DNA from: an uncultured Victivallaceae bacterium
GTDB lineage: Bacteria; Verrucomicrobiota; Lentisphaeria; Victivallales; GWF2-50-93
Length of the DNA stretch: 64,000 nt
Assembly (NCBI GenBank): GCA_964636325.1
Contig: CAZWRV010000011.1
Span: 7,264 to 71,263, forward strand
Direction: 5' to 3'
The translations under genes and the position numbers were made by a program. The notes beneath the pieces are model-generated. The model was given only the letters and a program-made list of their open reading frames with translations. It was not told the origin of the DNA and ran no database searches. Every line of letters starts with the position of its first letter. Within the stretch, counting starts at the first letter, position 1. Positions 2,994 to 42,469 of the stretch are shown here, one piece after another.

Positions 2994-3731
2994 TCAGAGT
3001 CCGCCGGTGACTTCGAGCACTGCGCCGGTGATGTATGAGGAGTCCCTGGACGCGAGGAAGATGACGGCCGATGCGACCTCTTCTGGTTTTCCGAATCGGC
3101 GCATGGGGATCATGCTTTTGTATGCGTTCCTCTGATCCTCGGGGAGGTCGGCTATGAGTTCGGTGTCTATGAATCCCGGGGATACGCAGTTGACGGTTAT
3201 CTGACGCCTGGCGGCCTCCTTGGCTAGCGACTTTGTGAACGCGACCTGTCCCGCCTTGGAGGCGGCGTAGTTGGCCTGGCCCTGGAAGCCCATGCTGCCG
3301 GACGGCGAGGTGATTGATATTATCCTGCCGAAGCGGTTCTCCATCATCTTGAGCAGGGCGAACTTGCTCATGGCGTAAGTCCCGCCGAGATTAGTTGAGA
3401 GGACGGCGTTCCAGTCCTCAGGGGGCATCATTCCGACAGCGTTGTCCTTCCTGACACCTGCATTGTTCACTAGCACCTCGAGGGACTTTTTCCTGAGTGA
3501 ATACTCCTTGAAGAACGCCTCGGCGGCCTTGTAGTCCGAAATGTCGAGGCGGGCGGTTTCCAGGCGGTCTTCCGGATGCCTGGACTTGAAGGCCTGCGCC
3601 GCAGCCTCGTTGCCCTGGTAGAGCGCTGTCACATTAGCACCCCTCGTGAGGAACGCCTCAGATATGGCGAGGCCGATACCGCGGGTGCCGCCTGTGATTA
3701 TTACGTTCCAACCGTTGAAGTCAAAGTCCAT
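2994..3731 (-). CDS. short-chain dehydrogenase/reductase, FabG-like 3-oxoacyl reductase
   Basis: TGGTRGIG cofactor motif, NNAG, and catalytic S...YAASK motif; 245 aa. Confidence 0.7.
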   Translation of the reverse strand: MDFDFNGWNVIITGGTRGIGLAISEAFLTRGANVTALYQGNEAAAQAFKSRHPEDRLETARLDISDYKAAEAFFKEYSLRKKSLEVLVNNAGVRKDNAVGMMPPEDWNAVLSTNLGGTYAMSKFALLKMMENRFGRIISITSPSGSMGFQGQANYAASKAGQVAFTKSLAKEAARRQITVNCVSPGFIDTELIADLPEDQRNAYKSMIPMRRFGKPEEVASAVIFLASRDSSYITGAVLEVTGGL

Positions 3732-3875
3732 GGTTCATATTTCCTGTCTCGAGGATACTCATGGCGTAAATATTCATTGAACTACGCCCTTTCACTGAAT
3801 ATATACCTCATGGCAGCGGTCGCCGGAAAGACGGGCAGCCGGAAATTCCAGGCCGCCTTCCGGGAAATATGAAAT

Positions 3876-14745: not shown

Positions 14746-14822
14746 GGGGGCGTAGCTCAATTGGTTAGAGCGCCAGCCTGTCACGCTGGAGGTTGCGGGT
14801 TCGAGCCCCGTCGCTCTCGCCA
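14746..14822 (+). tRNA. tRNA-Asp (anticodon GTC), CCA encoded
   Basis: Hand-folded cloverleaf. Acceptor GGGGGCG/CGCTCTC (two G-U pairs), D-arm GCTC/GAGC, anticodon stem CCAGC/GCTGG with loop CTGTCAC (GTC at 14780-14782), T-arm GCGGG-TTCGAGC-CCCGT, then G-CCA. Confidence 0.9.
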
Positions 14823-15273
14823 TTTTCTCATAGGAGAAATGGTTTTTTTGCCCCTTCTGTTGTGCTCCTGTTGTGCTCAAAGGGGTTAAAATCTTGTCCC
14901 CAACTAGCTCGCTTAGTTCCGAAAGTCGTCCCTTTGTTGTTCTGGCGTAAGTGTTCATGGTGAGGATTGGCGTTGAGTGTCGGGCAAGGCTTTGCGCCTC
15001 TTTCGCATTGGCACCTGATTCAAGCACCAATGTGACGTAAGCGACGCGGCAAGCGTGAAAGCCTATCTCCCCTTCCGAGGTTTTCTTGGGAATACCTGCC
15101 TTTTTAAGGTCTATGTCGAGATTATGGGCAAGATGCGTTGCAGGCACAAAAAGCAAGGGGTTTTCAGGCGCTTTATATGGCCTCCGGGCAGCTTTAAAGC
15201 TGGCCATGTAGAGGTTTTCCGCCGTTCTATTTTTTATGCTCTCAAGCAACTGGGCGACTAGAGATTTGGGCAA
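14823..15273 (-). pseudogene. tyrosine recombinase/integrase, C-terminal catalytic fragment only
   Basis: GFHACRVAYVTLVLESGANAKEAQSLARHSTPILTMNTYA matches the H-x-x-R ... H ... Y integrase box II. The N-terminal ~200 aa, including the box I Arg, are missing; an in-frame TGA lies just upstream of 15273. The ORF runs on through the tRNA only because no stop occurs. Confidence 0.7.
14869..14888 (+). repeat. 20-nt repeat gttgtgctcctgttgtgctc (internal tandem TGTTGTGCTC x2), copy 1
   Basis: Identical to 16839-16858. Lies 46 nt inside the left att-like repeat. Confidence 0.8.
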
Positions 15274-15314
15274 AGTTCATATAAGTTTTTCAAGGATGTT
15301 CGCCTTAGCCGTGC

Positions 15315-15503
15315 ATGGATGAAAACAATGAAATTGAAAAACTGGTTGCAAGGCTGAGGGAAGCCATCTCTGGCGATTTCAGCCCGAGGTTTGACGATCT
15401 TTCTTCGAAAATCCAGGATCTTGAGGACAACATAAACGAGGCTCTTGAGGTTCTTAACGAAAGAAGATACGCGGGAGATGCCAAGGAGTATTACGAGGAA
15501 TGA
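15315..15503 (+). CDS. small acidic coiled-coil protein, unknown function
   Basis: 62 aa, MDENNEIEKLVARLREAISGDF...; ATG start; coding-like composition within the AT-rich island. Confidence 0.4.
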   Translation: MDENNEIEKLVARLREAISGDFSPRFDDLSSKIQDLEDNINEALEVLNERRYAGDAKEYYEE

Positions 15504-15590
15504 GTCAACCCGATTCATCCGGAGTAAACTCGGAAGGCTTTCCCTGATATAGAAAAAAGAATCTGGATCAGAAGCGGAATCGTCGAGGAA

Positions 15591-15875
15591 TTGGATTGCA
15601 GGCAGTCAAAACTTCTTGAGTTCGTACTTGAGAGAATCAGATATTACTACAGGGAGCTTTACAGGACAAAGCCCTGTTATCAGTATCCTCTGACTCTTTT
15701 CCGTCTCAAGAAGCTTTGCGGGAGAAACTCGGTTTCCTTGGTTAACGCAGTCAGGATGCTTGCCAATACAGTTCCATTGGGCACTGATGAGGAACCCCCG
15801 ATTTACTATGACAGGATAAAATCCGAAAAAAACAAATGCCACAGGCCATACAGGATTTATTTGAGAAAAGCTTGA
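15591..15875 (+). CDS. hypothetical basic protein (island cargo)
   Basis: 94-aa ORF with TTG start, Arg/Lys/Tyr-rich. No motif recognised. Confidence 0.35.
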   Translation: MDCRQSKLLEFVLERIRYYYRELYRTKPCYQYPLTLFRLKKLCGRNSVSLVNAVRMLANTVPLGTDEEPPIYYDRIKSEKNKCHRPYRIYLRKA

Positions 15876-15985
15876 CAGGAAACTCAGTTTTTAATTCTGG
15901 AGTCTCCCGCCGCTCCGACGAGTCGTGTGCCCATTCTCGCGGCGGGAATCAAATCATGTCGTTATTAAAAAAGTGATTGGATAAT

Positions 15986-16390
15986 CTATTCCAGGTATTT
16001 TTTCACAAAGTCTGAAGGCTTGATTATAGTTATTCCGTTAATCCCTGAAAGATTCAGAAGATGTTTGTCACCGGAGATAATTATCTTCACCCCGGAAGCA
16101 ATAGCGCAGGCGATAAACTTGTCATCATCAGGATCGTCTTTTATGAAATTGGGGGTATGCAGGACATCAACAAGCAGGATGTTTGAGGTCAGAAGATTCC
16201 AGAAGGAATCCATGTCGGAAAAGCTGTATTTCCCTTGAAGCCTCATTAAAACCCTATGGTATTCATCAAGGATTGGGGCTGAGGCTACAAGAGTAAGTTT
16301 CTTCGATTTCCAATTCTCAAGAATCTTTCCGGGAACGCCATTGAAAAACAGTGCCGAGGCTAAAACATTCGTGTCAATGACAATTTTCAC
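15986..16390 (-). CDS. PIN-domain toxin (VapC-like)
   Basis: MKIVIDTNVLASALFF... with acidic residues at PIN positions (D6, E43-region, D/DD near 87-90, D108). 134 aa. 4-nt overlap with the upstream antitoxin gene. Confidence 0.75.
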   Translation of the reverse strand: MKIVIDTNVLASALFFNGVPGKILENWKSKKLTLVASAPILDEYHRVLMRLQGKYSFSDMDSFWNLLTSNILLVDVLHTPNFIKDDPDDDKFIACAIASGVKIIISGDKHLLNLSGINGITIIKPSDFVKKYLE

Positions 16391-16647
16391 TTGTTTCTCA
16401 CATCGGCTATCGCATCGTCAATATCGCTCTGTTTCATTCCGAGCACTTTCGCCTCTTTTCGCAGACTTGACACGATTCTATCAAAGTCATCGAAGGATGG
16501 GGCTGTCACATTTTTCAAGATAATGGTATCATTTTTCGCGGAAAGATAGAATTTGGAGCCTTTCTTTATGCCATATTTTCTTCTTATTCCAAGGGGAATC
16601 GGCAAATCGCCTCTCTGCGATACTGTTATAACTGCTGAATTTTCCAT
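16387..16647 (-). CDS. AbrB/SpoVT/MazE-family antitoxin
   Basis: VITVSQRGDLPIPLGIRRKYGIKKGSKFYL is the swapped-hairpin AbrB-type motif. 86 aa. Directly upstream of, and overlapping, the PIN gene. Confidence 0.7.
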   Translation of the reverse strand: MENSAVITVSQRGDLPIPLGIRRKYGIKKGSKFYLSAKNDTIILKNVTAPSFDDFDRIVSSLRKEAKVLGMKQSDIDDAIADVRNK

Positions 16648-16838
16648 GTTTTCACCTCTAATTTTAACCAGATTATATCATTCCTGCCAGGATTTTTCAA
16701 TAGTCTTTTTTCATTTCTTACTTGATGTGGATGACTCAATCATCAAAAGGATTCCCTTTTTCATGGCTTCGGGCAGGTCCGGCCAGGCTTCAAAAACCCT
16801 TTCAGGTCTGAATTATCGGGCAATTTTACGGCTTTTCC

Positions 16839-16858
16839 GTTGTGCTCCTGTTGTGCTC
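16839..16858 (+). repeat. 20-nt repeat gttgtgctcctgttgtgctc, copy 2
   Basis: Identical to 14869-14888. Lies 171 nt inside the right att-like repeat. Confidence 0.8.
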
Positions 16859-17029
16859 CGATTATGCTTTTGGGCTGTCCCACGCTTGTTTTGCCAATGT
16901 CGCCTTTTGTCCCATTCTTGACATTAGCATCATCTGCATTATATTCATCATCAACCTGTTGTGACACGCTTTGTCCCATGGTTGACAGGTTTTGTCCTTT
17001 GTTCGACAAATGCCGGTTTTGGGTCAAAT

Positions 17030-17056
17030 CGGGTTCGAGCCCCGTCGCTCCCGCCA
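17030..17056 (+). repeat. attR-like duplicate of the tRNA-Asp 3' end
   Basis: cgggttcgagccccgtcgctcCcgcca against tRNA 14796-14822 cgggttcgagccccgtcgctcTcgcca. Confidence 0.85.
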
Positions 17057-17349
17057 TCCCATGAAATTCTATCGCCCGCTTGAAAATCCGCCCTTCCTAA
17101 TTCTTGAATCTGCGGATTGGCAATGTAAGATATTACAATTGAGCCGCTTGGGTAAATATTCAGCGGAAGGGCGTAGTTCGCTGGATATTTACGGCAGCTT
17201 CAGTGTTTTAAGGCGTCTATCCTTCAATCGTTTATTAAACATGGAGATGAACTGACATCAAATCCCTTTCTGCAAAGCTGTGCTTCGCGCTGACCGCCCT
17301 TGTCCTGATATTCCTATCATGGAATTTCAGCTTCAAGCAGTCAAGGTTC

Positions 17350-24009: not shown

Positions 24010-24023
24010 TGGGACAGGCTAAA

Positions 24024-24197
24024 GCGAGCTTCGCTCGCAACCCAAAATACCAAGCTCCAAATTCCAAATCACAAATAAAATTCCAATATGCAAGTTCCAA
24101 ACACCGCAATTCAAAGTTTGGATTTTCATATTTGGGATTTGAGATTTATCTGGAATTTGGTGCTTGGAGCTTGGTGTTTGTAAACGTTTAAAACATA
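24024..24197. repeat. ~175-nt CCAAA/TTTGG-rich quasi-palindromic intergenic element, copy A
   Basis: Starts with GC hairpin gcgagc-ttc-gctcgc right after the stop codon, then imperfect inverted arms. About 80% alignable by eye to copy B (28750-28923). Confidence 0.75.
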
Positions 24198-24229: not shown

Positions 24230-27200
24230 CTACTTCTCCTTATTCCGGATTTGCCTTGCCGCGTGCCGGGCCGCCTCCCGAACGTCCATGCTCTGGTCCG
24301 TCCGCGCCATCTTTTCAATATCGGAAAGAAATTCCGTCGCATGCATGAACACCAGCGCTCCGACAGTGAAACCACGGTACGTCTCATCAGGACAGTGAAG
24401 GGTATACTTAAGTGAAGAAATCCCTTCTCCCGCACACATTCTTTTCGCCAGTCTGCGTATTTCGCGATCCTCGTCGTCCTTGAGTGCCTCGAGCTCCTTC
24501 ATCGCCTCGGCCGTGCCCAGGCGTAGCAGTGCGCATGCCGCGACAAAGCGATCCCACGAACCATGAGAACCCAAATATTTCTTCAGCACCGGGATGGACT
24601 GCGGGTGGCTGCGGCCCATGAATGCAAGCGTGCAGGCGGCCGCGAGATCGGCATTGTCTTCATTGGATTTCTCGTCCAATCCCCTCCGGGAAAGCAGCGC
24701 CTCAAGATTCGGGATGGAGCGGGGATCGCGGATTTTCGCCATAGCAAATCCGGCCGCTGCGGCCGCAAAGCTCTCCTGCGGATTGAGGTCCAAGGACGCG
24801 GCCAGGAAGTCCGTCGCACGCGGATCGCCCAAATTCCCGAATGTGACGCATAGGTCATAGATGAGGTTGTCGGGCGCGTGCTCCGCATAGGCGAGCAGCG
24901 GCGCCACCGCCTGCGGGTTTCCAATCTCGCCTAGCGCATCGATAATGTTTCCCTGGATATTCTTGTATTTCCCGTCCACAAGCATCTTGAGTAGAATCGG
25001 GACACTGTCGGTGTTGCCCATCGTTCCAAGTGCGGATATCACGCCGACGAGCAATTCCGCATCCGTCTCGTCCAGCGCATTGACAAGGAACTCATAGGCA
25101 TCCGGACAGTCAAAGCTGCCAAGGGCTTTTGCCGCAGCGACTTTTACAACTTTTATCGGATCGTTCTTGAAGACTGACATTAGGACGGGGACGGCCTCAT
25201 TACGGCCGGTCTTGCCGAGCGCCTCTACAGCCATCCCTCTGACTTGCCACCTGGGATCCTTGAGCGTCTCCACAAGAACCTTGTGCGCGGCAGGATCGTT
25301 GAAGTTGCCGATCGCGTCCAAGGCATCCTCCCTGATCTCGCTGTCGAGATTGTCGGCGTAAAGCGAAAGTATCGCCGGAAGCATGTCCGCCTCGCATCTC
25401 TGCACCAGTGACTTGATAGCCAAACGTCTGATGTACAAATCTCCGTCCCCCAGCGCAGCGACCAGAATATCCTTAGCCTCACCATTGTTGAATATCCCGA
25501 TGAGCCTCAACGCATCCCTCCTTAACGACCTGTCGGTTGCAGTATTGAAGACAGATATGAGATTGGGTAGGAATGAGTCGTCGCCCCTGTTTCCTATGAG
25601 CCTCAGAGCATCCTTGCGGATTTCCATGTCATCATCCGTCAACGCTTTGCACAACATATCACGGGCCCGATCGCCGAGGATGCCTGCTAGGGCACGGAAG
25701 GCATCTAGCCTTACGCTTGGGTCTGGTTCCTTCTCGAATGCCAGCTTCAAGGATGCGGCCGCGGAATCGCCGCCGATTTTTCCGAGCGCGTTCGCCGCCG
25801 TCCGGCGCCTGTATGAATCCACGTCTTCTGGCGTGGATTTGCCGGGATTTTTTATGGCTGATAGCAGAATCTTTGTAAGGAACGGCTCAGTTTCCGGGTC
25901 GGCGATCACTTCCAATAACTCAACGAGCTGGGATTGAGCCTGCTCCTGCTTGTCGCCGATTCTGGAAATGAAATCCTTAAGAAAAGGTTTCACCGCCTTT
26001 TTGTCTATCTGGACCAGCGACCGCATGGCATGGAGCTTGATGCTGTCCGGATGGTCGCCGCGAATGATTTCCTCAAGCAGGGATACGGTTTCAGGCCTCT
26101 TGAAACTTCCGAGCATTGAAATGGCCGGATTCGACGAGATGTCCTTTCCGTTCCTCAGGGACTCGCTCAAAATCTCAAAGGCTTCGTCGGTCTGGAACTT
26201 CCCTATGCTTGCGATGAGATGATAACGGAGATACTTGTGCTGAGGCGAATCCAACAGTTTTTTCAATTCAGGAATAATGGCCGCGCCTTTTATGTCTGTC
26301 AGCGCGTCAAAGACGGCTTCAAGAAGCCGGTCCTCATCCCTTGTCCTATCTTGCCGTGCTGAATCATCGTCCTTCCGAGCCTCGAGGAATGCGAGCAGTT
26401 CCGGCACGGCTTTCTCCGAGCGGATTCTTCCAAGTATCCTCACGGCGTAATACCGAACCCCGGGATTCTTTTCATTCTTGAACGCGGAAATGACATTTTC
26501 GACGCCGCCCGCGTCCAGAACTGCGGGATCTCGGAAGATTGTTTCGAGGACTGACTCCCTGATTTTCGGATTGGGATCGTCTTTCAGGAACCCAAGCAGG
26601 ATGGGGAGGCAAGTCCGGCATTTTTCACCGTAAAGACTTCCTATAAGGCTTGAGCGGACTTCCGGGGCGGAATCGTCCTTCAGTATGCCGGCGAGAAGGT
26701 TCCGGACGCTGTCGTCGATATCAACATTTGAGGCGATGACGCTGACAAGACTGCATCTCACCCTTGTGTCACCCTCGCTTTCAAGCGCCTCGAGCAAGGT
26801 GCGGGATATCGACGGATCTACCAGGCGCGGACCGGGCAAGGAAACAAGAGAATGGACGAGGGCGCTTCTCACCTCGGGATCCGGATCGTTCTTCAACGAT
26901 GAAAGCATCTGCGGCAGGGCGCCCATCTCTATGAACGAATAAAGGTAGGTGGCTATGTGGGAGCGGACTTCCGGCGAACTGTCACTCCTGAGCGCCTTGA
27001 TCAATGCCGGAAGGGAACTTGGAGACTCAAGGATCACAATTGATCCTGCCGCGCAGGCGCGTATTCTCGACTCGGGATCGTTGAGCAGCGCCTCTTCCAG
27101 CGCCGGAAGCGCCTTGGGGCTGGCAAGTTCGCCGAGGACCCCGGCGCAGAAAAGCCGAACGACCAGCCTGTTGTGAGGCTTGAGTCTCTTAGCCAGGATT

Positions 27201-27502
27201 GGAATGGCCTTGGGCCCATAAACCTCGACCTGCTCTTTCACTTCATAGCGGTTCACATATTTTCTTTTAAGCAGCCGCTCAAGGATGGGCAGTTTCCTGT
27301 CCAGCCTATATCTGCTCAGTAAATCCAGCAGTTGTTCGCGAAGTCCGCGCTGGTTCCCGGAGTCGTCATAGATCCTGTCCAGCTGGCCGTTTATCTTCCG
27401 TTCGAGCTTCGCCTCCGGCCGCATGAACCAGCAAAATCCCGCCACGGCAAGCAGGACGCAGGAAAGAACAACCGCATACCTGAAATGTTTTCTCTTATTC
27501 AT
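24230..27502 (-). CDS. large HEAT-repeat protein with N-terminal membrane anchor
   Basis: 1090 aa. N-terminal hydrophobic segment (VVLSCVLLAVAGFCWF) followed by more than 20 HEAT/PBS-lyase-like repeats (recurrent D..PEVR..A..aLg). Confidence 0.7.
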   Translation of the reverse strand: MNKRKHFRYAVVLSCVLLAVAGFCWFMRPEAKLERKINGQLDRIYDDSGNQRGLREQLLDLLSRYRLDRKLPILERLLKRKYVNRYEVKEQVEVYGPKAIPILAKRLKPHNRLVVRLFCAGVLGELASPKALPALEEALLNDPESRIRACAAGSIVILESPSSLPALIKALRSDSSPEVRSHIATYLYSFIEMGALPQMLSSLKNDPDPEVRSALVHSLVSLPGPRLVDPSISRTLLEALESEGDTRVRCSLVSVIASNVDIDDSVRNLLAGILKDDSAPEVRSSLIGSLYGEKCRTCLPILLGFLKDDPNPKIRESVLETIFRDPAVLDAGGVENVISAFKNEKNPGVRYYAVRILGRIRSEKAVPELLAFLEARKDDDSARQDRTRDEDRLLEAVFDALTDIKGAAIIPELKKLLDSPQHKYLRYHLIASIGKFQTDEAFEILSESLRNGKDISSNPAISMLGSFKRPETVSLLEEIIRGDHPDSIKLHAMRSLVQIDKKAVKPFLKDFISRIGDKQEQAQSQLVELLEVIADPETEPFLTKILLSAIKNPGKSTPEDVDSYRRRTAANALGKIGGDSAAASLKLAFEKEPDPSVRLDAFRALAGILGDRARDMLCKALTDDDMEIRKDALRLIGNRGDDSFLPNLISVFNTATDRSLRRDALRLIGIFNNGEAKDILVAALGDGDLYIRRLAIKSLVQRCEADMLPAILSLYADNLDSEIREDALDAIGNFNDPAAHKVLVETLKDPRWQVRGMAVEALGKTGRNEAVPVLMSVFKNDPIKVVKVAAAKALGSFDCPDAYEFLVNALDETDAELLVGVISALGTMGNTDSVPILLKMLVDGKYKNIQGNIIDALGEIGNPQAVAPLLAYAEHAPDNLIYDLCVTFGNLGDPRATDFLAASLDLNPQESFAAAAAGFAMAKIRDPRSIPNLEALLSRRGLDEKSNEDNADLAAACTLAFMGRSHPQSIPVLKKYLGSHGSWDRFVAACALLRLGTAEAMKELEALKDDEDREIRRLAKRMCAGEGISSLKYTLHCPDETYRGFTVGALVFMHATEFLSDIEKMARTDQSMDVREAARHAARQIRNKEK

Positions 27503-27731: not shown

Positions 27732-28748
27732 ATGAAAAAGGAGTCCAAGCCCAAGATTGTCATCAAGCAGCCGCCGCTGCTGTTCAACCAGTCGCAGAAA
27801 CTCATCTCGAAGATCCAGAAGATCATCGGCACGGGCATCATCTGCTACTGGACGTCCAGCAGGGGGAGCGTCTGCGACAACGACGTGGTAGGTCTCTACG
27901 AAGTCTTGAAGAAGCTGGGTCGCGGGAAGAAGATAGCGCTCTTCCTCAAGTCGCACGGCGGCAGCGTGGAGCCGACTCTGCGGATAGTGAACCTCATCCG
28001 CGAATACTACGCTCACGTGACCGCGCTGGTGCCGCTGGAATGCGCGTCGGCCGCGACGATGATCGCCGTCGGCGCAAACGAGATACAGATGGGGCCGCTG
28101 GCGCACCTGACCGCGATCGACTCGTCTCTCACCCACGACCTCTCGCCGATCGACACCAGGGACAACCGCAAGGTGAGCGTCAGCCAGGACGAGCTCGGCC
28201 GCATTGTCAAGCTCTGGAACGCCAACTCCAAGGCCAACGACGGCAATCCGTACGGCGACATCTTCAAATACATCCATCCCCTCGTCGTAGGCGCCATCGA
28301 CCGTTCAAGCTCGCTCTCCACGCAGATCTGCAGGGAGATACTTTCCTACCACATCAGAAACGAGGAGGAGGCGGACCGCATCAGCAGGCACCTCAACTCA
28401 AGCTATCCTTCCCATTCATATCCGATTACGCTTAGGGAGGCGAAGCGCATCGGGCTTTCCGCGACCGCCCTGGACAAGGACGTCAACGGCCTCCTGATCG
28501 ACCTTAACGAAATATACTCTGAGATGGCGCAGAAGGCCCTCACCGACTATGACGAGTGCAAGTACCACGACAACGAGATTCTGAACATCATCGAGTCCCG
28601 CGGAGTGCAGATCTACTACCAGAACGACAAGGACTGGAACTACCTCAAGGAGGAGCGCCGCTACCAGAGCCTCAACGACAACAGCTCATGGCGCAAGATC
28701 GAGCTGGTCAACGGCAAGCAGGTCAAGACGCAGTTCCATATACGCTGA
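27732..28748 (+). CDS. Clp-fold serine protease, SDH ('serine dehydrogenase proteinase') family-like
   Basis: IICYWTSSRGSVCDNDVVGLYEVLKKLGRGKKIALFLKSHGGSVEPTLRIVNLIREYYAHVTALVPLECASAATMIAVGANEIQMGP matches my memory of the SDH/ClpP-like family pattern (hTpGG...S-A-[AG]-T). Confidence 0.5.
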   Translation: MKKESKPKIVIKQPPLLFNQSQKLISKIQKIIGTGIICYWTSSRGSVCDNDVVGLYEVLKKLGRGKKIALFLKSHGGSVEPTLRIVNLIREYYAHVTALVPLECASAATMIAVGANEIQMGPLAHLTAIDSSLTHDLSPIDTRDNRKVSVSQDELGRIVKLWNANSKANDGNPYGDIFKYIHPLVVGAIDRSSSLSTQICREILSYHIRNEEEADRISRHLNSSYPSHSYPITLREAKRIGLSATALDKDVNGLLIDLNEIYSEMAQKALTDYDECKYHDNEILNIIESRGVQIYYQNDKDWNYLKEERRYQSLNDNSSWRKIELVNGKQVKTQFHIR

Positions 28749-28749
28749 G

Positions 28750-28923
28750 GCGGGCAACGCCCGCAACCCAAAATTCCAAGCTCCAAAATCCAAATCACAA
28801 ATAAATTCCAATTATCAAATTCCAAACGGCGCGACTCAGAGTTTGGATATTGAAGTTTGAGATTTGAGATTTATTTGGAATTTGGTGCTTGGAAGTTTGG
28901 AATTTACAAACGCTAAAAGCATA
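28750..28923. repeat. ~175-nt CCAAA/TTTGG-rich quasi-palindromic intergenic element, copy B
   Basis: GC hairpin gcgggc-aac-gcccgc right after the stop, then arms centred on ccaaac...gtttgg. Same head and tail (aaacg.t.aaa.cata) as copy A. Confidence 0.75.
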
Positions 28924-28949: not shown

Positions 28950-29768
28950 ATGTGTCCGGAATCGCATCAAAACCTGGAACTTACCGACGCAAAGAAGGTC
29001 GACGAGGCGCTTGGGGCGATAGCCCGTGACGACATCCGCGCGGCCGAACGTCTTCTGCTTGAGGTTGTCGCGAACACGCCGCCTGGATATTCCAACGAAC
29101 AGGAGGACGGCGGGACTGCTTCGATAAGGTTCTGGGACCAGGCCTCGTTCATCCATTTCGTCATGTGGGAGAAGGACCATGGGGTCGAGAGGAGCATCAA
29201 CTGGCTCCCCAACGCCTATCCGAGGGCATACTACTATCTGGGATTCATCTGCGTCAAGCGGAAGGAATATTTCAGGGCTGTCGAATTTCTCGACAAGGGG
29301 CTGGAACTGGAACCGTCCAATCCGAACTTCAAGTTCGAGAAGGCCCATGCGCTGGTAAATACTGGATACCATAAGGAGGCGCTCGCCCTCTATGAGGGGG
29401 TCAATGGGCTCGGTCCCTACGTCAGCGCCCGCGAGCTTGGCGTGGCCCGGCGGGGATGCGGCTTCGTGCTGATTGAGATGGGGCGGCTTGACGAAGCAGA
29501 GGCCGCCTTCAAGTCATCCTTGGAGATCGATCCCGCCAATAAGATCGCGCTCAGCGAACTGCAATACATCGATCACTTGCGCAAGGGCGGCCGGAAAAGC
29601 GACACGGAAAGCATCTCAACTACCGGCGCCGACCTGTCGAACTGCGCCATCTGCGGCAGGAAATTCGAGGAAGGGGCCGCTGTCTCCATGGACGGAATGC
29701 CGGCCTTCATCTGCCGGAGCTGCGAAGGAAGGCTGACCAGGAAGTGGTGGCAGTTCTGGAAGTGGTAA
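28950..29768 (+). CDS. TPR-repeat protein with C-terminal CxxC...CxxC zinc ribbon and Trp-rich tail
   Basis: TPR-like helices (AYYYLGFICVKRKEYFRAVEFLDKGLELEPSNP...). C-terminus CAICGRKFEEG...FICRSCEGRLTRKWWQFWKW. Confidence 0.6.
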   Translation: MCPESHQNLELTDAKKVDEALGAIARDDIRAAERLLLEVVANTPPGYSNEQEDGGTASIRFWDQASFIHFVMWEKDHGVERSINWLPNAYPRAYYYLGFICVKRKEYFRAVEFLDKGLELEPSNPNFKFEKAHALVNTGYHKEALALYEGVNGLGPYVSARELGVARRGCGFVLIEMGRLDEAEAAFKSSLEIDPANKIALSELQYIDHLRKGGRKSDTESISTTGADLSNCAICGRKFEEGAAVSMDGMPAFICRSCEGRLTRKWWQFWKW

Positions 29769-29853: not shown

Positions 29854-31722
29854 GTGACACCCAAGGAACTTGAACAGACAATAAGGACCTTGCTTCAGAG
29901 GCCGATGGCCGACACGGAACTGCGCGACCAGCTTGAGAAGCTTGCGGAGGCCGAGGCTTCCTTCTCCGGATTCACCTGGCTCTTCGGCCCGGAGCTGTAC
30001 CGCCGCAACCGCATCCTCTTCCGCCCGTTCATCCTGTCGCGCTTCAGCACATACATGGTCCTGCCCAAGTGGAGGGTCGAAGAAATAAAATGGAAAGGTC
30101 CCAAGGCGGGGATACTCGATCCCTGGCTCGCGGAAGTCGACCGCAACGACGACGTGGAGCTTTTCCGCAAGCTCTACGAATGGAAGCTGAGCGCCCAGTT
30201 CGACTGGAGGATGCGCGACAAGAAGTCGGAGACGCTCCGCAAGGAACTGCTTGCCCGCTTCCGCGGCGCGGCCAACGCCCCTCAGCGCGAGACGGTGCTG
30301 CGCAAGCTCGACCTCTGGTTCAACCTCGATGAAGCCACCGCATGTTCGATATATGAAATCGACCACCGTGCGGCAGGCCCGTTCATCCTGCGCCACCTGC
30401 CCAGCTCATGGTTCAGCGGGGAGCAGAAGCGGACTTTGTGGGGCAGAATGCATTCATTGGCCGACCAGCGCCGCGACGAGGATTTCCGCTGGCGCCTCTA
30501 CCGTCGTCAAGTGCCTCTGCCCGACTGGACCAAGGAATGCCTTGGCCTCTGCGACAACGTCAGCGATCCGTCCAAGTTGGTCCAGGAACTGCTCAGACGC
30601 CACCCTGAAGGCTATGGGATCAATCTGGCCGACGGGTTCTACCAGATGGTCCAGCGCAGGGGCCGCGACGTCTTCCCGTATGTGATGCGCCATCTCCGCC
30701 AGGTCTGGGGCGGATGGTTCGGCCGCGGCAGCTACGGCCGGATGGCCGATCTGGCACGCCAGCACGGCTGGTGGGATCTCTGGGCGGCGCTCATCCGGGT
30801 CTGCAGCGGACCGAAGGAGTTCAACAAGGAAATACATTCCATCCTGACGGACAGCAGCCTGACCAAGAAGCTTGCCGAGGAGCGCCTGCTCGCGCTGGCC
30901 GGAGTTTCGCGCGAATGGAACTGGCCCGGCCTCGGCATCGCGACGGTGCATCAGCTTGAGGAGTCCACGGCGATGCTGTTCTATGAGCGATTCCCCGACC
31001 TGCTGCGCGGCCCCTTCAAGCTGCACGTCCAGGGCAACATGTGGGGCGAGACTTATCCGAAGCTCCTCGACCGCTTCCTCGCGGACGGCGACGAGGAAAT
31101 GGTCGATCATCTGGCCAGCCGCATCATCACGCGTTCCGGCCGTTGGGGCAATGCGCAGAAGCTTCTCGCGGAAGCCGAAAAGCTGGCCGACTACTACGGC
31201 GCGATGAAGTCAGACGAGGCAGTCTTTTCACGGCGCGCCGCGAGCGTCCTGGGGAGGATACCGGCATACTCGATATGGCAGTATAATCCGCTGGTCCAGG
31301 AGAACAGGCTGGCCCGGCTGCTCTTCGAGCGCTCCGCCTCCTCGTATCTGGCCGATCCGTGCAGCGTATCGGATCTCGTGGAGGCCGCGGAGATACACGT
31401 GATGGCGCTTGCTTACCGCGCGCTGGGACTCGACGACGACCGTGCCCGCGAGCAGGCCGTCCATCATCTGCCGCTCCTTATGGGGACGCTACTCCGCCCG
31501 ATGCAGCGGGGCACGCGCATCCTGGCGTTCGGCGCGCTCGCAAACGCCGCCGTAAGCGCGGAGACCGCACGAACCGTTCTGGACCGGGCCCGCGACGCAA
31601 TGTTTCTCCCGGACCTGCGCTACCCGAAGGAGGATCTCCTAGGGCTCATCGCAAAATTGCTGCGGCACTGGCCCGAACTGCGCGGTCCCGGCGAACAGCC
31701 GGTGATCTACAAGAAGCAGTGA
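29854..31722 (+). CDS. hypothetical all-alpha (ARM/HEAT-like?) protein, 622 aa
   Basis: Long ORF with coding-like composition, Trp/Arg/Leu-rich helical sequence. No catalytic motif recognised. Ends 62 nt before the SWIM gene. Confidence 0.55.
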   Translation: MTPKELEQTIRTLLQRPMADTELRDQLEKLAEAEASFSGFTWLFGPELYRRNRILFRPFILSRFSTYMVLPKWRVEEIKWKGPKAGILDPWLAEVDRNDDVELFRKLYEWKLSAQFDWRMRDKKSETLRKELLARFRGAANAPQRETVLRKLDLWFNLDEATACSIYEIDHRAAGPFILRHLPSSWFSGEQKRTLWGRMHSLADQRRDEDFRWRLYRRQVPLPDWTKECLGLCDNVSDPSKLVQELLRRHPEGYGINLADGFYQMVQRRGRDVFPYVMRHLRQVWGGWFGRGSYGRMADLARQHGWWDLWAALIRVCSGPKEFNKEIHSILTDSSLTKKLAEERLLALAGVSREWNWPGLGIATVHQLEESTAMLFYERFPDLLRGPFKLHVQGNMWGETYPKLLDRFLADGDEEMVDHLASRIITRSGRWGNAQKLLAEAEKLADYYGAMKSDEAVFSRRAASVLGRIPAYSIWQYNPLVQENRLARLLFERSASSYLADPCSVSDLVEAAEIHVMALAYRALGLDDDRAREQAVHHLPLLMGTLLRPMQRGTRILAFGALANAAVSAETARTVLDRARDAMFLPDLRYPKEDLLGLIAKLLRHWPELRGPGEQPVIYKKQ

Positions 31723-31783
31723 ATAGTTGGATAACTGGTTACTGTGCGCGGCGATTATTCGCCGCGATTATAAAAGGAGCACG

Positions 31784-33397
31784 ATGATAGCCCTTTTCGA
31801 CTATGCGAGCCCCAGCACCTTGGAATCGCAGCGGGACCGCGCCCTGCTCGGGATTTCTGCGAACGCGCGCCGTCCCGTGCGCTTCCACGGGAAGCTGTTG
31901 CGCAACGTGCCGCTCCTTCGCTTCACGCTGCGGGCCCTCGGCGAGGCGATATGGTCCGACGACTCTTGGTCAAGCCAGGGCGAATTCGGAATGTGGATAC
32001 TCGATCCCGTCATCACGGTTCATCCGGACCGAATCTTCTTCGAGGCGTTCAGCCAGGATCAGAGCGTCTATGCGATGGTCGTGGCAAATCCTCGGATGTT
32101 CGCGGCCGAAGGCGAAGTGATTACGGGGACGACAAACGTCGACTTCAGCGCCTGGCTGTGGGGCGCCTTGAATGAACTTCGCTCCAGCCGCGAAACCTGG
32201 CTGCGCATAGGCCCCGAAGGCTTCGAGGTAAGGACGAAGCGCGCCGGAGGCCGTTTCGAACAGAAGGTCGACCTGCCGGACCACTGGGTCCGCGGATTCC
32301 TCCAGGTGACCGCCGCCATGGCAATGCCAGGGACTCGCATCACGGTGCGTCCCGCGGATCTTCTTGCCGCAATACGTTTCCTGCGGTATACGAAGGCGAA
32401 GCTCTCACCCAGGGCCCTGCGCTACGAATTCAATCCCGGCGAGGATGCGCGCATCGTCCTCGAACCCTGGGAGCATGTAGTCCCTCTGCGCGGCGCGGAA
32501 CATAATTACACCGAACCGCGGACTGTCCGTACCTGGGGGCGCCGCCGTCTCAAGCTCATCGAACCGCTACTGCCTTTCGCGACCAGCGTGGACATCTACC
32601 TGAAGGGCAGGGGGCTTCCGAGCTTCTATGCTGTAAAGATGCCCGACCTGACTTTCGTGCTCGGGCTTTCCGGCTGGACCCAGCAGCAATGGACCGACAA
32701 CGGAAGCTTCGATCTGCTCTCGGAGGCTGAAGCGCCGGAACCGGATCTGATCGACAAAGTCCAGCAGCATCTGGCCGCCAGCTTCCATGCCTCGCCGAAG
32801 GATATGGCCGCCGCCATCGGCTGTGCGCCCGATCTCGTCTGGCACGCATGCGAGCGGCTATGCCGTCAGGGACGGGCAATCTTCGACGTCGAATCCCGCG
32901 CCTTCCGCCACCGCCGGCTTTTCGAGGCGCCGGTAGACGAATCGAAGCTCTTCCCTCCCGACGAGCGCCGCGAGCGCGCCAAGGCTCTGCTGGCGGGCAA
33001 TTCCGTCTCGATCTCGCGCTGCGAGCCTCAGGAGACGCGGAAGACAAAGAAGCTCAAGAACCCCAACGGCGCACCGTTTACACGCGAGATAATCTACCGC
33101 GACTGGATTGTCTCCGGCGTCGCAGGCAAGGAGAAGGGCACCGAAATCGTGATCGGCGACACGGGCCGCATCATTTTCGGTAAATGTTCCTGCGCATTCT
33201 TCCAGGAAAACCTTATGGGCAAAGGCCCGTGCGAACACATGATTGCCCTCTTCCAAGCCAGCGCCGACTCGCGCAAGGACCTCCCAACCTCCGTCCCGGC
33301 GGCGGCAAGTCCGCCCCCGCTACCAAAGCAGGACAAGGGCAGCGAAGAGGAGAATGAGGCGGAGCCCGAGGACGGGGGCGGGGAAGAAAAGGAATAA
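31784..33397 (+). CDS. SWIM zinc-finger protein
   Basis: C-terminal SWIM signature GKCSCAFFQENLMGKGPCEHMIALF (CxC...CxH). Start moved to ATG 31784 behind AAAGGAG (31773-31779). Acidic Glu/Gly tail. Confidence 0.7.
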   Translation: MIALFDYASPSTLESQRDRALLGISANARRPVRFHGKLLRNVPLLRFTLRALGEAIWSDDSWSSQGEFGMWILDPVITVHPDRIFFEAFSQDQSVYAMVVANPRMFAAEGEVITGTTNVDFSAWLWGALNELRSSRETWLRIGPEGFEVRTKRAGGRFEQKVDLPDHWVRGFLQVTAAMAMPGTRITVRPADLLAAIRFLRYTKAKLSPRALRYEFNPGEDARIVLEPWEHVVPLRGAEHNYTEPRTVRTWGRRRLKLIEPLLPFATSVDIYLKGRGLPSFYAVKMPDLTFVLGLSGWTQQQWTDNGSFDLLSEAEAPEPDLIDKVQQHLAASFHASPKDMAAAIGCAPDLVWHACERLCRQGRAIFDVESRAFRHRRLFEAPVDESKLFPPDERRERAKALLAGNSVSISRCEPQETRKTKKLKNPNGAPFTREIIYRDWIVSGVAGKEKGTEIVIGDTGRIIFGKCSCAFFQENLMGKGPCEHMIALFQASADSRKDLPTSVPAAASPPPLPKQDKGSEEENEAEPEDGGGEEKE

Positions 33398-33467
33398 TCA
33401 GCCCATGACCGTTTTTTTGAGTTTTGAAATTGGTTCGATGCGGCTGTAGCAGTATAACTTGTAAAAA

Positions 33468-33642
33468 CATGGATCCGGAGGAGGTCCGGCGGCGAAGGAT
33501 TAGCCTAGATTGCCGCGGTGTTTCGCCGCGGTGGGGCAATGCCAGCCATACATCGCCAGGGTTCCCAACGTTCGCAACGTAGGGAAGCCCTGAGTCCAGG
33601 GCCTCGAAAGTGATCCGCCGCCGGGCCTCCTCCGGATCCATG
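33468..33642 (+). ncRNA. candidate structured RNA (possible retron msr-msd) closed by a 27-bp stem
   Basis: 33468-33494 pairs with 33616-33642 (26 Watson-Crick pairs plus one U-G that is A-C on the opposite strand). Internal hairpins at 33509-33540 and 33557-33592. Lies 354 nt upstream of the RT on the same strand. Confidence 0.4.
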
Positions 33643-33681
33643 GAAAACTGCGGGATTAGCAGTTTTGTCGGTTGGAAACTC

Positions 33682-33736
33682 GATGGAGGGCGAAGTCGTG
33701 CTGAGCCGCGGTTGAGCTTGGCTCAACCCTCCGGAA
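33682..33736 (+). repeat. 55-nt direct repeat, left copy (contains hairpin ggttgagc-ttg-gctcaacc)
   Basis: 54/55 identical to 35363-35417. Confidence 0.85.
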
Positions 33737-33826
33737 TAAGACAAAGATAGCGTCAAAGATGGTGAGTTTCAGGAAGTGCCGTATATCCGCCTCGGCGGAC
33801 AGTTTTGTCAGTGAGCAACAAGTAGT

Positions 33827-33965
33827 TTGCGCGCGGCGCGCGCAATAACACAGAACACGGCATTCCTCGTATGCGGGGTTTGCTTTTTGCGCGCGGCGCG
33901 CGCAATAACACAGAACACGGCATTCCTCGTATGCGGGGTTTGCTTTTTGCGCGCGGCGCGCGCAA
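33827..33965. repeat. array of three 19-nt GC palindromic units (ttgcgcgcggcgcgcgcaa) with identical 41-nt linkers, 60-bp period
   Basis: Units at 33827-33845, 33887-33905 and 33947-33965. Sequence lines 33841-33900 and 33901-33960 are identical. Confidence 0.9.
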
Positions 33966-33995
33966 GCTACCCGTCGAGTTTCAGGAGAGTTTCAA

Positions 33996-35294
33996 GTGGG
34001 CTTTTTTCAATGGATTAAAGAGCTTATGGGAGGTCCGCGCAGGCGCGACATCTCCCGTCTTTCCCCGTCCGAAGGGGAGGGTGCCGATGATTCCGCCGCG
34101 GAACTTGTGGACGTCTCTGGCGGCCCTTTGAAGGAGCACCACCGCCGTCTGGCCCTGCGCGACCGCCGCCTGCTTCCGAAAGTCAAGTCGGTCACGCGCG
34201 CGATGGGTTTGACAAGGCGCAAAAAGGTGATGGGGAAGGCCGAGGCGGACCGTCTTTTCAGCGGAACCTTGCGGACCCGTAACCGTAAGCTCCGCGACCT
34301 TTTGGCCGACGAGGAACAGCTCAAGCGCTACGGCCTGCCGTTGTGGAATACTGAAGAAGACCTCGCCGCGTGCCTCGGCGTTTCCATCAAGGAATTATGG
34401 TTCTTCTCCATCCACCGGCAGAGGGAGAGGCAGCCGCACTATGTCACGTTTTCAATCCTCAAGCGTTCGGGCGGGAGCAGGCTCATCATGGCGCCTAAGC
34501 GCCGCCTGAAGGCGATCCAGAGGAAACTACTGGCCCTGCTGGTCGAAAAGCTGCCGGTGAGCGAACACGCCCACGCATTCCGCCGGGGCAGAAGTGTCCG
34601 CACCGGCGCCGAACCCCACGTCCGCAAGCGCCTGATCCTGCATCTTGATCTGAAGGATTTCTTCCCTTCGGTCACTTTCGCGCGCGTCCGAGGGATGCTG
34701 ATCGCCTACGGGTATTCCTATCCGGTCGCTTCGACCCTTGCGGTCCTGATGACCGAGGCTGAACGCCAGCCGGTCGAGGAGGACGGGAAGGTGTACCATG
34801 TCCCCGTCGGGCCGCGCCACTGCGTGCAGGGTGCGCCGACGAGTCCGGGCATCTGCAATTCGATGCTTCTCCGGCTGGACCGGCGACTTGCCGGACTGGC
34901 GGCGAAGCATTCGCTTTCATATACGCGCTATGCCGACGACATCGCCTTCTCCGGCGACGTTGAACGTCCCGCCGCGCACAAGATCCGCGCGGCCGCGTCA
35001 CGGATCATCGCGGAGGAGGGATTCCTGGTCAACGCGGAGAAGACGCGCCTCATGGGAAGTGGAGCACGGCACTCCGTCACCGGGGTCGTTGTGAATCAGA
35101 CTCTTGGGCTTTCGCGCAAGGATCGGCGCCGCATGAGGGCGGCCGCGCACCGGCTTGTGAAAGGGCAGGCGGGCGCTTCCCCGGAACGCACGCAGGCCTG
35201 GCTCGACGGACGGATCGCTTACCTGCACATGCTCAACCCGCAGCAGGCGGACGCGATAAGGAATCTCCAATGTCCGACAAGGAATATTCATTGA
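33996..35294 (+). CDS. retron-type reverse transcriptase
   Basis: GTG start 6 nt after AGGAGAG. Motifs RGRSVRTGAEPH, LHLDLKDFFPSV, QGAPTSPGICN, YTRYADDIAFSG, RHSVTGVVVN. No maturase or endonuclease domain. About 130-aa N-terminal extension. Confidence 0.8.
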   Translation: MGFFQWIKELMGGPRRRDISRLSPSEGEGADDSAAELVDVSGGPLKEHHRRLALRDRRLLPKVKSVTRAMGLTRRKKVMGKAEADRLFSGTLRTRNRKLRDLLADEEQLKRYGLPLWNTEEDLAACLGVSIKELWFFSIHRQRERQPHYVTFSILKRSGGSRLIMAPKRRLKAIQRKLLALLVEKLPVSEHAHAFRRGRSVRTGAEPHVRKRLILHLDLKDFFPSVTFARVRGMLIAYGYSYPVASTLAVLMTEAERQPVEEDGKVYHVPVGPRHCVQGAPTSPGICNSMLLRLDRRLAGLAAKHSLSYTRYADDIAFSGDVERPAAHKIRAAASRIIAEEGFLVNAEKTRLMGSGARHSVTGVVVNQTLGLSRKDRRRMRAAAHRLVKGQAGASPERTQAWLDGRIAYLHMLNPQQADAIRNLQCPTRNIH

Positions 35295-35362
35295 TCAATA
35301 TAATGGAGCCAATTTCAAAATGCGGTTGAGCACAGCTCAACCCTCCACGATTTCTCCGCCTA

Positions 35363-35417
35363 GATGGAGGGCGAAGCCGTGCTGAGCCGCGGTTGAGCTT
35401 GGCTCAACCCTCCGGAA
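35363..35417 (+). repeat. 55-nt direct repeat, right copy
   Basis: 54/55 identical to 33682-33736. An extra copy of the hairpin module (ggttgagc-aca-gctcaaccctcc) lies at 35324-35346. Confidence 0.85.
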
Positions 35418-35459
35418 GACGACAAAATTACCGACAAAGATTTTCAAATTACAGGAGAG

Positions 35460-36881
35460 ATGGCGATGAGAAAGAACACGTTCGCAGTGATGTTCGGGAA
35501 CCGGGGATTCTTTCCGGAAACTCTGATATCGGGGGCGAGAAAGGAAATCGGAGCGGCGCTGAAGAAGGCCGGCTACGGGGCGTTGATGATGGAACCGTCG
35601 GAGACCAGATACGGCGCCATCGAGACTCCTGCGGAAGGTGAGAAGTTCGCAAAATTCCTAGAGCGGAACAGGGGCAGATACGACGGCGTGATCATCTGCC
35701 TTCCCAATTTCGGAGACGAGACCGGAGCGGTCGCCGCCGTCCGCGACTGCGGAACTCCCATACTCGTCCAGGCCTACCCCGATGAACTCGACAAGATGTC
35801 GATGGCGACTCGCAGGGACTCGTTCTGCGGCAAGTTTTCCGTCATGGATGTCCTCTGCCAGTACGGCATATCCTTCAGCGCGCTGACGCCGCACACGGTC
35901 CATCCGGTTTCCGCGGAGTTCTCGGACAATCTGGACGTCTTCGCGGGGATATGCAGGATTGTCAACGGAATGAGGCGATTCACGGTCGGCGCGATAGGCG
36001 CCAGGACGACCGCCTTCAAGACAGTGCGCTTCGACGAGCTCGCCCTGCAGAAATACGGGATAACCACCGAGACGCTCGACCTTTCCGAAGTTGTGCTCAG
36101 GGTGAACTCGCTCAAAACGTCCGATCCGAAGGTGAAGGCCAAGGCGGCCGTCCTCAGAAGATACGCCTGCTGGAAAGGAACCCCTGCGGAATCATTCGAA
36201 AACATCGCGAAGCTCGCGTTGGTCCTCGACCGCATCGTCGAGGAATACAAGATGGACGCACTTTCGCTGAGATGCTGGATCGAGCTGGAGAAGCTTTTGA
36301 AGCTTTCCCCATGCGTGATCCTCAGCGAGATGAACAACCGCGGCATCCCCGCGGCGTGCGAGCTGGACGTCTGCAACGCGGTGGCGATGAGGGCGCTGAG
36401 CCTGGCCTCCGAAGCTCCGTCCGCATGCCTCGACTGGAACAACAACTTCGGCGGCGAATCAGACAAGTGCATCCTCTTCCACTGCGGCCCCGTCCCTCAG
36501 AAGATGATGGCCGGAAAGGGTCTGATCGTAGACCATCCGATGTTTGCGAAGGCGCTCGGCGCCGGATGCGGCTTCGGCTGCAACACCGGCAGAATATCGC
36601 CTTCGCCGTTCACATATTCGAGCGCGAAGACGCAGGACGGCAAGCTGCATTTCTACCTGGGGCAGGGGGCTTTCACTGACGACGCCGTCCCCAGCGAATT
36701 CTTCGGCTGCGCCGGAGTCGCCAGGATCGACGGACTGCAGAAAAAACTTCAGTCCATCGGATACAACGGCTACAGGCACCATGTAAGCGTCACCTTCGGC
36801 GAACATGGACGCGCGGTAAACGAGGCCTTCGCAAGATACTTGAAATACGAATGCATGGCGCTGGACGATTTCGGCGTGTGA
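35460..36881 (+). CDS. L-fucose/L-arabinose isomerase-family protein
   Basis: 473 aa. The N-terminus FAVMFGNRGFFPETLISGARKEI and overall size resemble the COG2407-type sugar isomerases (from memory). Confidence 0.5.
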   Translation: MAMRKNTFAVMFGNRGFFPETLISGARKEIGAALKKAGYGALMMEPSETRYGAIETPAEGEKFAKFLERNRGRYDGVIICLPNFGDETGAVAAVRDCGTPILVQAYPDELDKMSMATRRDSFCGKFSVMDVLCQYGISFSALTPHTVHPVSAEFSDNLDVFAGICRIVNGMRRFTVGAIGARTTAFKTVRFDELALQKYGITTETLDLSEVVLRVNSLKTSDPKVKAKAAVLRRYACWKGTPAESFENIAKLALVLDRIVEEYKMDALSLRCWIELEKLLKLSPCVILSEMNNRGIPAACELDVCNAVAMRALSLASEAPSACLDWNNNFGGESDKCILFHCGPVPQKMMAGKGLIVDHPMFAKALGAGCGFGCNTGRISPSPFTYSSAKTQDGKLHFYLGQGAFTDDAVPSEFFGCAGVARIDGLQKKLQSIGYNGYRHHVSVTFGEHGRAVNEAFARYLKYECMALDDFGV

Positions 36882-38943: not shown

Positions 38944-39056
38944 CGCCTTACAAGAGGAATTCTTCTATTTTATTACGGACACTCATCTCACCTGAACTCC
39001 TTTCAAAACTCGGCAAACGGCTCAGCTCGGCTTCGCCCTCCGCGCACGAATTGAGT

Positions 39057-42147: not shown

Positions 42148-42222
42148 TTTGCGCGATCCGGGTTGCAAGTTCCTGTTGAAGTGCAAACTTACACGCTTGC
42201 GAATCACAGCCTGCGAAGTAGT

Positions 42223-42300
42223 TTGCGCGCGCCGCGCGCAATCAACGGAACACGGTATTCCTCGCATGCGGAGTTTGCCCTTTGCGCGCGGCGCGCGCAA
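42223..42300. repeat. two 19-nt GC palindromic units with a 40-nt linker (59-bp period)
   Basis: Units at 42223-42241 and 42282-42300. Linker and flanks are about 85% alignable by eye to the array at 33827-33965. Confidence 0.85.
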
Positions 42301-42469
42301 GCTACTCATCGAGCTCCATGCGAGTGTCGAACCCCGAGCGTGAAGCGCCTCTGGGTTTTGTCAGCGAGAAACTCGAAGTACGCCGCTCGATCCGAGAGCG
42401 GCCTAATCTAAATAATGTCGCACTCGGATCGTGCGACGTACTTGAGCCAAGTTTCAGGAGAGATGCCCG

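Follow-up and report, generated by a model that had tools for sequence, protein, structure and literature searches.

The stretch analysed here, referred to below as the window, comprises 64 kb of contig CAZWRV010000011.1 from an uncultured Victivallaceae bacterium and contains a reverse transcriptase (RT) gene bracketed by two nearly identical direct repeats. The RT locus is a type XIII retron of the Mx162/Mx65 family, composed of a HEAT/ARM-like gene, a SWIM gene, an msr-msd noncoding RNA (ncRNA) and the RT gene, in this order; the original prediction, which was centred on the repeats, missed both the retron identity and the ncRNA that lies upstream of the first repeat. The RT gene (33996-35294, plus strand, GTG start) encodes a protein of 432 aa that matches PADLOC RT_XIII (1.5e-128, covering residues 67-422 of 432) and Pfam RVT_1 (1.3e-18), contains the VTG triplet (SVTGVVVN) and belongs to the RT lineage of retron clade 10/type XIII. 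The adjacent SWIM zinc-finger accessory gene (31727-33397, plus strand, 556 aa; PADLOC SWIM_XIII, 5e-147; Pfam SWIM, 1.4e-5) represents cluster 114 and is preceded by a first accessory gene (29854-31722, plus strand, 622 aa), which we describe as HEAT/ARM-like by position, as it matched no Pfam family and its HEAT/ARM character is backed by no profile. A homologous 623-aa gene, 67-74% identical at the amino acid level, is located directly upstream of the SWIM gene in the relatives L013, L014, L092 and L095. The SWIM/winged-helix protein of type XIII usually has a HEAT/ARM-like protein before it (Mestre et al. 2020, PMC7736814), and the classical myxobacterial retrons Mx162, Mx65, Ne144 and Sa163 (Retron-Mxa1, -Mxa2, -Nex2 and -Sau1, respectively; PMC7736814), to which the retron of the window was compared, belong to this type.

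The products of the ARM, SWIM and RT genes exhibit 67-74%, 72-78% and 67-73% amino acid identity to their counterparts in the relatives, i.e. they diverge in step, which indicates that the RT gene is native to the locus and has not been brought in between the repeats. The N-terminus of the RT is also conserved, with the relatives aligning from residue 1. Duplication upon insertion of an RT cassette, one of the four readings offered in the original prediction, was rejected in view of the in-step divergence of the three genes together with the conserved N-terminus and position of the RT. Homologues of the RT are numerous (more than 100 at 66-74% identity in public data, one of them labelled as Verrucomicrobiota), and no retron relative above 75% amino acid identity was found in the collections searched. 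The locus thus shares with type XIII retrons an apparently vertical inheritance with many relatives at about 70% identity, in addition to the RT_XIII match, the SWIM gene placed after a HEAT/ARM-like gene and the ncRNA directly upstream of the RT gene. The rest of the window is ordinary chromosome, with rpoA, proS, frr, two-component kinases and ABC transporters, and about 45 of its open reading frames (ORFs) were scanned without finding an integrase or a transposase.

The region upstream of the ARM gene differs between the window and two of the relatives. In L092 (1-3290) and L095 (419-2567), the ARM-SWIM-ncRNA-RT array is preceded by a helicase-nuclease with DUF4011, AAA_11, AAA_12, MTES_1575 and a WGR domain; it comprises 1851 aa in L092, where it is placed directly before the ARM gene, and is split into adjacent ORFs in L095, with one 240-aa ORF intervening. 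The window lacks this DUF4011-helicase-WGR gene and has a TPR protein (28950-29768) at the corresponding position. Retrons of this type XIII branch may therefore consist of four genes, with the system trimmed in the window genome.

The ncRNA (33468-33642, plus strand) is predicted to be closed by a 27-bp a2/a1 stem that encloses 121 nt, with an msr hairpin (GCCGCGGUG/CGCCGCGGU) and an msd hairpin inside (z-score of the fold: -8.9). The long a1/a2 stem, the short msr hairpins and the msd stem-loop next to the RT gene agree with the known retron layout of paired ends, short 5' hairpins and a 3' stem-loop (PMC7736814). Its core (the inner 119 nt) was identified by nhmmer upstream of the RT gene in 10 of 10 close relatives, i.e. 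all loci of that set with DNA in hand. In the resulting alignment (187 columns, 90% mean identity) RNAalifold predicted 62 pairs, with 97.3% of the cells paired, and we counted 9 compensatory pairs, compared to 1.5 +/- 1.1 in shuffled alignments and 0-3 with slid partners. Eight of the 9 are located in the outer closing stem, where the doubly changed sequence is that of the window in seven cases and that of L014 in one; the outer closing stem differs on both strands in the window lineage, which alone accounts for these seven pairs. The covariance model reported a single match in the window (33462-33648, 200 bits) and one in each close relative, and no match in more distant type XIII loci, in which the RT is about 30-45% identical. 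Where the closing stem ends on its inner side, the invariant GGAUUAGCC (33497-33505) contains what we infer, from position only, to be a candidate branching G. The 8-mer GGATTAGC, identical to the motif with this G (33497-33504), occurs again at 33652-33659, 10 nt past the end of the ncRNA, possibly by chance.

The direct repeats fall outside the ncRNA. That the repeat could be a second or vestigial ncRNA was rejected, as the covariance model gives one ncRNA only, and the two 8-mers common to the ncRNA and the second repeat copy (GCCTAGAT and GCCGCGGT) are at the level expected by chance. Rfam searches of the whole window at gathering thresholds and of 33300-35500 at E <= 10 revealed no match to the repeat, the ncRNA or the neighbouring palindromes described below. 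On the other side of the ncRNA, 70 nt (33398-33467) separate the SWIM stop codon from the closing stem, while in the relatives compared (L092, 6800-6820; L014, 3732-3752) the a2 arm overlaps the last SWIM codons and the stop. Unlike in the known type XIII retrons, the layout in the window is therefore loosened, by these 70 extra nucleotides between SWIM gene and ncRNA and by about 350 nt of host repeats between ncRNA and RT gene.

The repeat cores are located at 33682-33736 and 35363-35417, and their sequences and positions were confirmed as originally described, with 54 of 55 residues identical and T33696 versus C35377 as the sole mismatch. The similarity extends further, to an ungapped direct repeat of 82 nt on the plus strand (33679-33760 and 35360-35441) with 90% identity, which is distributed unevenly: the palindromic core reaches 98% and the tail about 70%, with an identical stretch of 39-40 nt. 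Such a pair is beyond chance, as had been argued (BLAST E-value of 3e-25 within the window). The first copy begins 37 nt past the ncRNA, and the second ends 19 nt upstream of the start of an isomerase-like gene (35460). The 55-mer is self-complementary: its left half, a module that we term M2 (GGAGGGCGAAGYCGTGCTGAGCCG; 33685-33708 in the first copy), is about 76% identical to the reverse complement of its right half, M3 (GCGGTTGAGC-TTG-GCTCAACCCTCC; 33708-33732), and the resulting inverted doublet is predicted to fold into one long imperfect hairpin (-25.3 kcal/mol, z = -2.6 for the first copy; -28.0 kcal/mol, z = -3.4 for the second). The single T/C difference preserves a pair of the hairpin, U-G in the first copy and C-G in the second.

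The hairpin GGTTGAGC-NNN-GCTCAACC at the heart of M3 occurs exactly three times in 64 kb (33710, 35324 and 35391), with 0.01 occurrences expected by chance. The third copy reported in the original prediction was found again as an M3 unit (GCGGTTGAGC-ACA-GCTCAACCCTCC, 35322-35346) within a singlet behind the RT gene (35303-35346, plus strand), which is made up of this unit and an inverted copy of another module, M6. The singlet pairs with the second repeat copy in the predicted fold of 35300-35441 (z = -5.1), and the proposed CCCUCCA/UGGAGGG link between the two downstream copies is present in that minimum-energy structure. In a comparison with miniature inverted-repeat transposable elements, which have terminal inverted repeats and a target-site duplication, the flanks of the two full copies (AAACTC|GATGG and CGCCTA|GATGG on the left, GGAA|TAAG and GGAA|GACG on the right) revealed no common duplication, and the boundaries of the element are uncertain. 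Logan contig L001 (SRR12969846), an independent assembly, is identical to the window over 33936-35391; it ends upstream at the first unique 31-mer past the tandem array and downstream inside the second repeat copy. As it spans the region from the RT gene to that copy, the junction of the RT gene with the second repeat is not an assembly artefact.

The repeat modules are absent from all 84 fetched loci of RT relatives, including the 10 close ones with the same ncRNA. In six of the close relatives the RT start follows the aligned ncRNA block (which runs 8 nt beyond the closing stem) after only 11-14 nt, with a Shine-Dalgarno sequence of the GGAGG type in between, compared to an ncRNA-RT spacer of 347 nt in the window. 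In L013, L014 and L016 the spacer is 149-210 nt long and has been enlarged by other palindromic or tandem repeats, such as GGGAGAGGG-type hairpins and, in L014, a 54-nt tandem. Repeats of different families have thus entered the msd-RT spacer independently of each other in 4 of the 11 loci. L016, a relative of a different lineage, carries a unit of 28 nt (CCCTCnCCCTGACCCTCTCCC...), similar to repetitive extragenic palindromic (REP) sequences, on both sides of the RT gene, at 1089-1116 in the ncRNA-RT spacer and at 3258-3285, about 700 nt downstream.

The absence of the repeats from 10 of 10 close relatives, most of which start the RT 11-14 nt past the ncRNA block, bears directly on the possibility that they serve the retron, either as paired RNA hairpins at which the msr-msd transcript and the RT mRNA are terminated or insulated, or as sites for recombination by which the RT gene is lost and regained. 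The positions are suggestive, with a hairpin after each transcription unit (37 nt past the ncRNA and, for the other units, about 30-65 nt past the RT stop codon), and an identity of 39-40 nt is long enough for RecA-dependent recombination. The G+C-rich stem-loops shortly past the ends of the ncRNA and of the RT gene also resemble intrinsic (Rho-independent) terminators, which we rejected: behind the stems there is CTCCGGAA or CTCCACGA instead of a U-tract, and none of them was called by the consensus scan. We found neither a recombinase in the segment or close to it nor an RT-less allele, the latter comparison being uninformative because the isomerase homologues are non-syntenic. We consider a function of the repeats in the retron very unlikely, and two of the original readings, paired RNA elements needed by the RT transcript and dedicated recombination sites, are thereby not supported.

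Parts of the repeat were found separately. A fourth, partial copy on the minus strand (39018-39041) consists of the M2 half only, is 23/24 identical to the second repeat copy (E-value 3.8e-6), folds poorly on its own and is placed between the convergent ends of a TPR gene (stop at 38943) and a small minus-strand ORF (stop at 39057). The family is thus represented in the window by two full doublets and two single units, all of them extragenic, i.e. between ORFs. Other Verrucomicrobiota also contain M3: among the matches listed, the metagenome-assembled genomes (MAGs) L002, L004 and L007 have it with the same flanks (AGCCGC...CTCC) and 6-nt loops, and in L003 the M3 pattern has a loop of 4 nt and another 5' flank. 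The hairpin stems are identical in the three copies of the window, and the copies in other genomes were retrieved with a search pattern in which the stem is fixed. The four sites in these MAGs are all intergenic and unrelated, with no RT or SWIM gene nearby; the genes beside them encode a GDSL lipase, PanE and a glycosyltransferase, a methyltransferase and ShlB, and a GH20 protein. Some of the M3 sites in other Verrucomicrobiota lie between convergent gene ends. In two of the four MAGs M3 adjoins GTAG-type REP hairpins, and in two it belongs to one common two-hairpin composite of about 50 nt that is found beside different genes. Rfam searches of these four loci gave no match, nor did scans of viral contigs for M3 and M2.

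These copies also bear on a regulatory explanation, according to which the 8-3-8 palindrome would be the operator through which a dimeric transcription factor regulates the isomerase-like gene and, via the upstream copy, the RT gene. The 3-nt centre in three of three window copies and the presence of two copies at a mutual distance of 67 bp, located 51-136 nt before the isomerase start codon, are in line with such a role. However, identity over 55-82 nt is far longer than an operator, and the other Verrucomicrobiota have loops of 4-6 nt and sites at convergent ends or next to unrelated genes. Homologues of the isomerase (82-84% amino acid identity) are found in unrelated contexts without a retron; the sole one with retrievable DNA, the 82% identical protein of L096, has an upstream spacer of 46 nt and no repeat module at its locus. 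We regard an operator as highly improbable.

A second, GC-rich palindromic element shares the ncRNA-RT spacer with the first repeat copy. It comprises three TTGCGCGCGGCGCGCGCAA palindromes 60 nt apart with GTAG...GCTAC flanks and a AGTTTCAGGAGAG tail (33820-33993, plus strand; z-score of the fold: -9.0). Two further copies were found on the plus strand: one upstream of proS (start at 42470), with two palindromes and a 91-nt hairpin with a 25-bp stem (42216-42328; z = -6.3), and a degenerate one (1781-1892) that keeps the AGTTTCAGGAGAG tail and is followed by no plus-strand gene. The copy near the RT gene is 85-90% identical to the former and 70% identical to the latter. The basic form of the element consists of two inverted palindromes with GTAG/CTAC ends and a spacer of about 40 nt that form the 91-nt hairpin, to which the RT-proximal copy adds one 60-nt unit. 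With three sites in the window, the element is dispersed over 40 kb.

The 13-mer AGTTTCAGGAGAG (variant AAATTACAGGAGAG) was observed at 33977-33989, 42450-42462, 1880-1892 and 35447-35459. It precedes the start codons of the RT gene, proS and the isomerase-like gene, in the first two cases by 6-8 nt. As the 13-mer belongs to the GC-palindrome element and occurs at 1880 without a gene behind it, the element apparently supplies the present ribosome-binding site of the RT gene; a dispersed repeat thus appears to donate ribosome-binding sites to unrelated genes. Two short modules recur around the repeats as well. M1 (GTTTTGTCnG...AAC) was found on the plus strand at 33662-33679, with further copies at 33802-33819 and 42355-42372. 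M6 (GAGTTTTGAAAkkGGTTC) is located on the plus strand at 33419-33436 and inverted at 35303-35320 and 38994-39011; it is weak on its own, with a 12-nt exact match near the level expected by chance.

Altogether, the two direct repeats are probably host intergenic repeats that resemble REP sequences, REPINs (doublets of REP sequences) and bacterial interspersed mosaic elements (BIMEs), have been inserted on both sides of a native RT gene and form no part of the retron. Of the four original readings this corresponds to the dispersed intergenic repeat family, the one in line with the evidence: halves of the repeat occur at an unrelated intergenic site and in other Verrucomicrobiota, the GC-palindrome array is dispersed, and the relatives lack the repeat. 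The repeats share with REP sequences, REPINs and BIMEs (Bertels & Rainey 2011, PMC3337134, PMC3116915) the short, imperfect and extragenic palindromes, the inverted pair that forms one hairpin, the occurrence as singlets, doublets and tandem clusters, the species-specific character of the family and a core that is better conserved than its flanks. The GC-palindrome element, with its length of about 91 nt and its GTAG/CTAC ends, is in turn similar to an 89-bp REPIN (PMC3337134). REP sequences and REPINs are present in tens to hundreds of copies per genome; the copy numbers given here apply to 64 kb, and mobility of the repeats in the window is putative. The reading draws on these 64 kb of the source genome and on at least four MAGs with M3 elsewhere.

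Several observations weigh against it. The about 45 ORFs include no REP-associated tyrosine transposase (RAYT), IS200-like or other transposase, which is uninformative for a gene that occurs once per genome. RAYTs (Y1 transposases) are single-copy genes. The 55-mer, unlike the GC-palindrome element, is without the GTAG head typical of the REP sequences recognised by RAYTs. The full-length repeat is found only twice in 64 kb and all units of its family lie within 5.4 kb, and weak similarity continues into the A-rich tail and a Shine-Dalgarno-like motif, which would fit a local duplication of the isomerase leader as well.

Such a purely local and non-mobile event, in which the leader of the isomerase gene was copied once into the ncRNA-RT spacer by an accident of replication or recombination and the nearby partial copies are decayed products of similar local events, would require no genome-wide family. 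It would account for full copies only 1.68 kb apart and for the clustering of every window unit, GAGTTTCAGGAAGTG after the first copy resembles the Shine-Dalgarno and start region after the second, and 98% identity of the core suggests a recent event. Nonetheless, the drop to about 70% in the tail is unexpected from a single recent duplication, and the halves occur apart, M3 alone at 35322 and M2 alone and inverted at 39018. Furthermore, M3 with the same flanks is found at unrelated sites in other Verrucomicrobiota, and the neighbouring GC-palindrome repeat of the same spacer is dispersed over tens of kilobases. We therefore consider a local duplication unlikely.

The attC sites of integrons were also taken into account, since these are imperfect palindromes in direct orientation that flank a single gene, and GTTGAGC fits GTTRRRY while GCTCAAC fits RYYYAAC. 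The candidate was rejected: within each hairpin the heptamers are separated by 3 nt and their order is opposite to R''...R', which in attC spans 57-141 nt, and the sole span in the right order (35335-35398, 64 nt) requires a one-sided bulge of 20 nt. There is no integrase among the scanned ORFs and the RT gene is native to the retron; the judgement was made without a dedicated attC model.

If the repeats are host elements of the REP/REPIN/BIME kind, the history of the locus could be envisaged as follows. A vertically inherited type XIII retron would have received two copies (55-82 nt) of a lineage-specific palindromic intergenic repeat, with one doublet landing in the ncRNA-RT spacer and the other between the RT gene and the next gene, beside a single M3; the GC-palindrome family would have landed in the same upstream spacer, where it would now provide the ribosome-binding site of the RT gene. 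The copies may have spread as single-strand hairpins via a RAYT/IS200-like transposase, as has been proposed for REPINs; alternatively, gene conversion or recombination between them may have spread the units. For the retron, the consequences could be neutral, or limited to the action of a hairpin at the 3' end of an RNA (stabilisation or partial termination), and the stretch of 39-40 identical nucleotides might occasionally lead to deletion of the RT gene by RecA-dependent homologous recombination, as a side effect. One may further speculate that the doublets have been co-opted, uncoupling the expression of ncRNA and RT by their position behind each of the two and letting a subpopulation delete the RT gene through the identical stretch, as a repeat-mediated phase switch that turns the SWIM/ARM effector arm of a defence system on or off, for which we see a very slim chance.

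Further unrelated families of intergenic repeats are present in the window. A 46-nt inverted pair with 85% complementarity (3762-3807 and 17151-17196), 13 kb apart at two intergenic sites, is another dispersed repeat. An AT-rich, internally palindromic element of about 150-175 nt, which is similar to miniature inverted-repeat transposable elements, is found in two copies (24018-24179 and 28744-28900, 80-84% identical) that flank a HEAT-repeat gene (24230-27502, minus strand) and a ClpP-like gene (27732-28748), just upstream of the retron block. Independently of these, the final 28 nt of a tRNA gene (14796-14823) have a second copy at 17030-17057 (27/28 identical). The two bracket an islet of about 2.2 kb (region 14746-17057) in which a PIN-domain toxin (15986-16390, minus strand; PIN_3, 2.6e-19) is encoded next to an ORF of 86 aa; the islet looks like the remnant of a small toxin-antitoxin module integrated at a tRNA attachment site.

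The retron described here adds one more member to a type that is already known and abundant, and the repeats behave like REP/REPIN/BIME elements. The result corrects the picture of the locus: the RT is not a mobile cassette with insertion repeats, but a conserved retron RT whose spacers have gathered host palindromes. It also provides a well-supported ncRNA for the large Verrucomicrobiota branch of type XIII, with 171 paired-end nucleotides, a covarying closing stem and a candidate branching G. The independent invasions of the msd-RT spacer by different REP-like repeats indicate that the tight coupling of ncRNA and RT found in most retrons can relax. Should the repeats affect the expression or the loss of the RT, the locus would be a natural example of a defence system that is tuned by repeats of its host.

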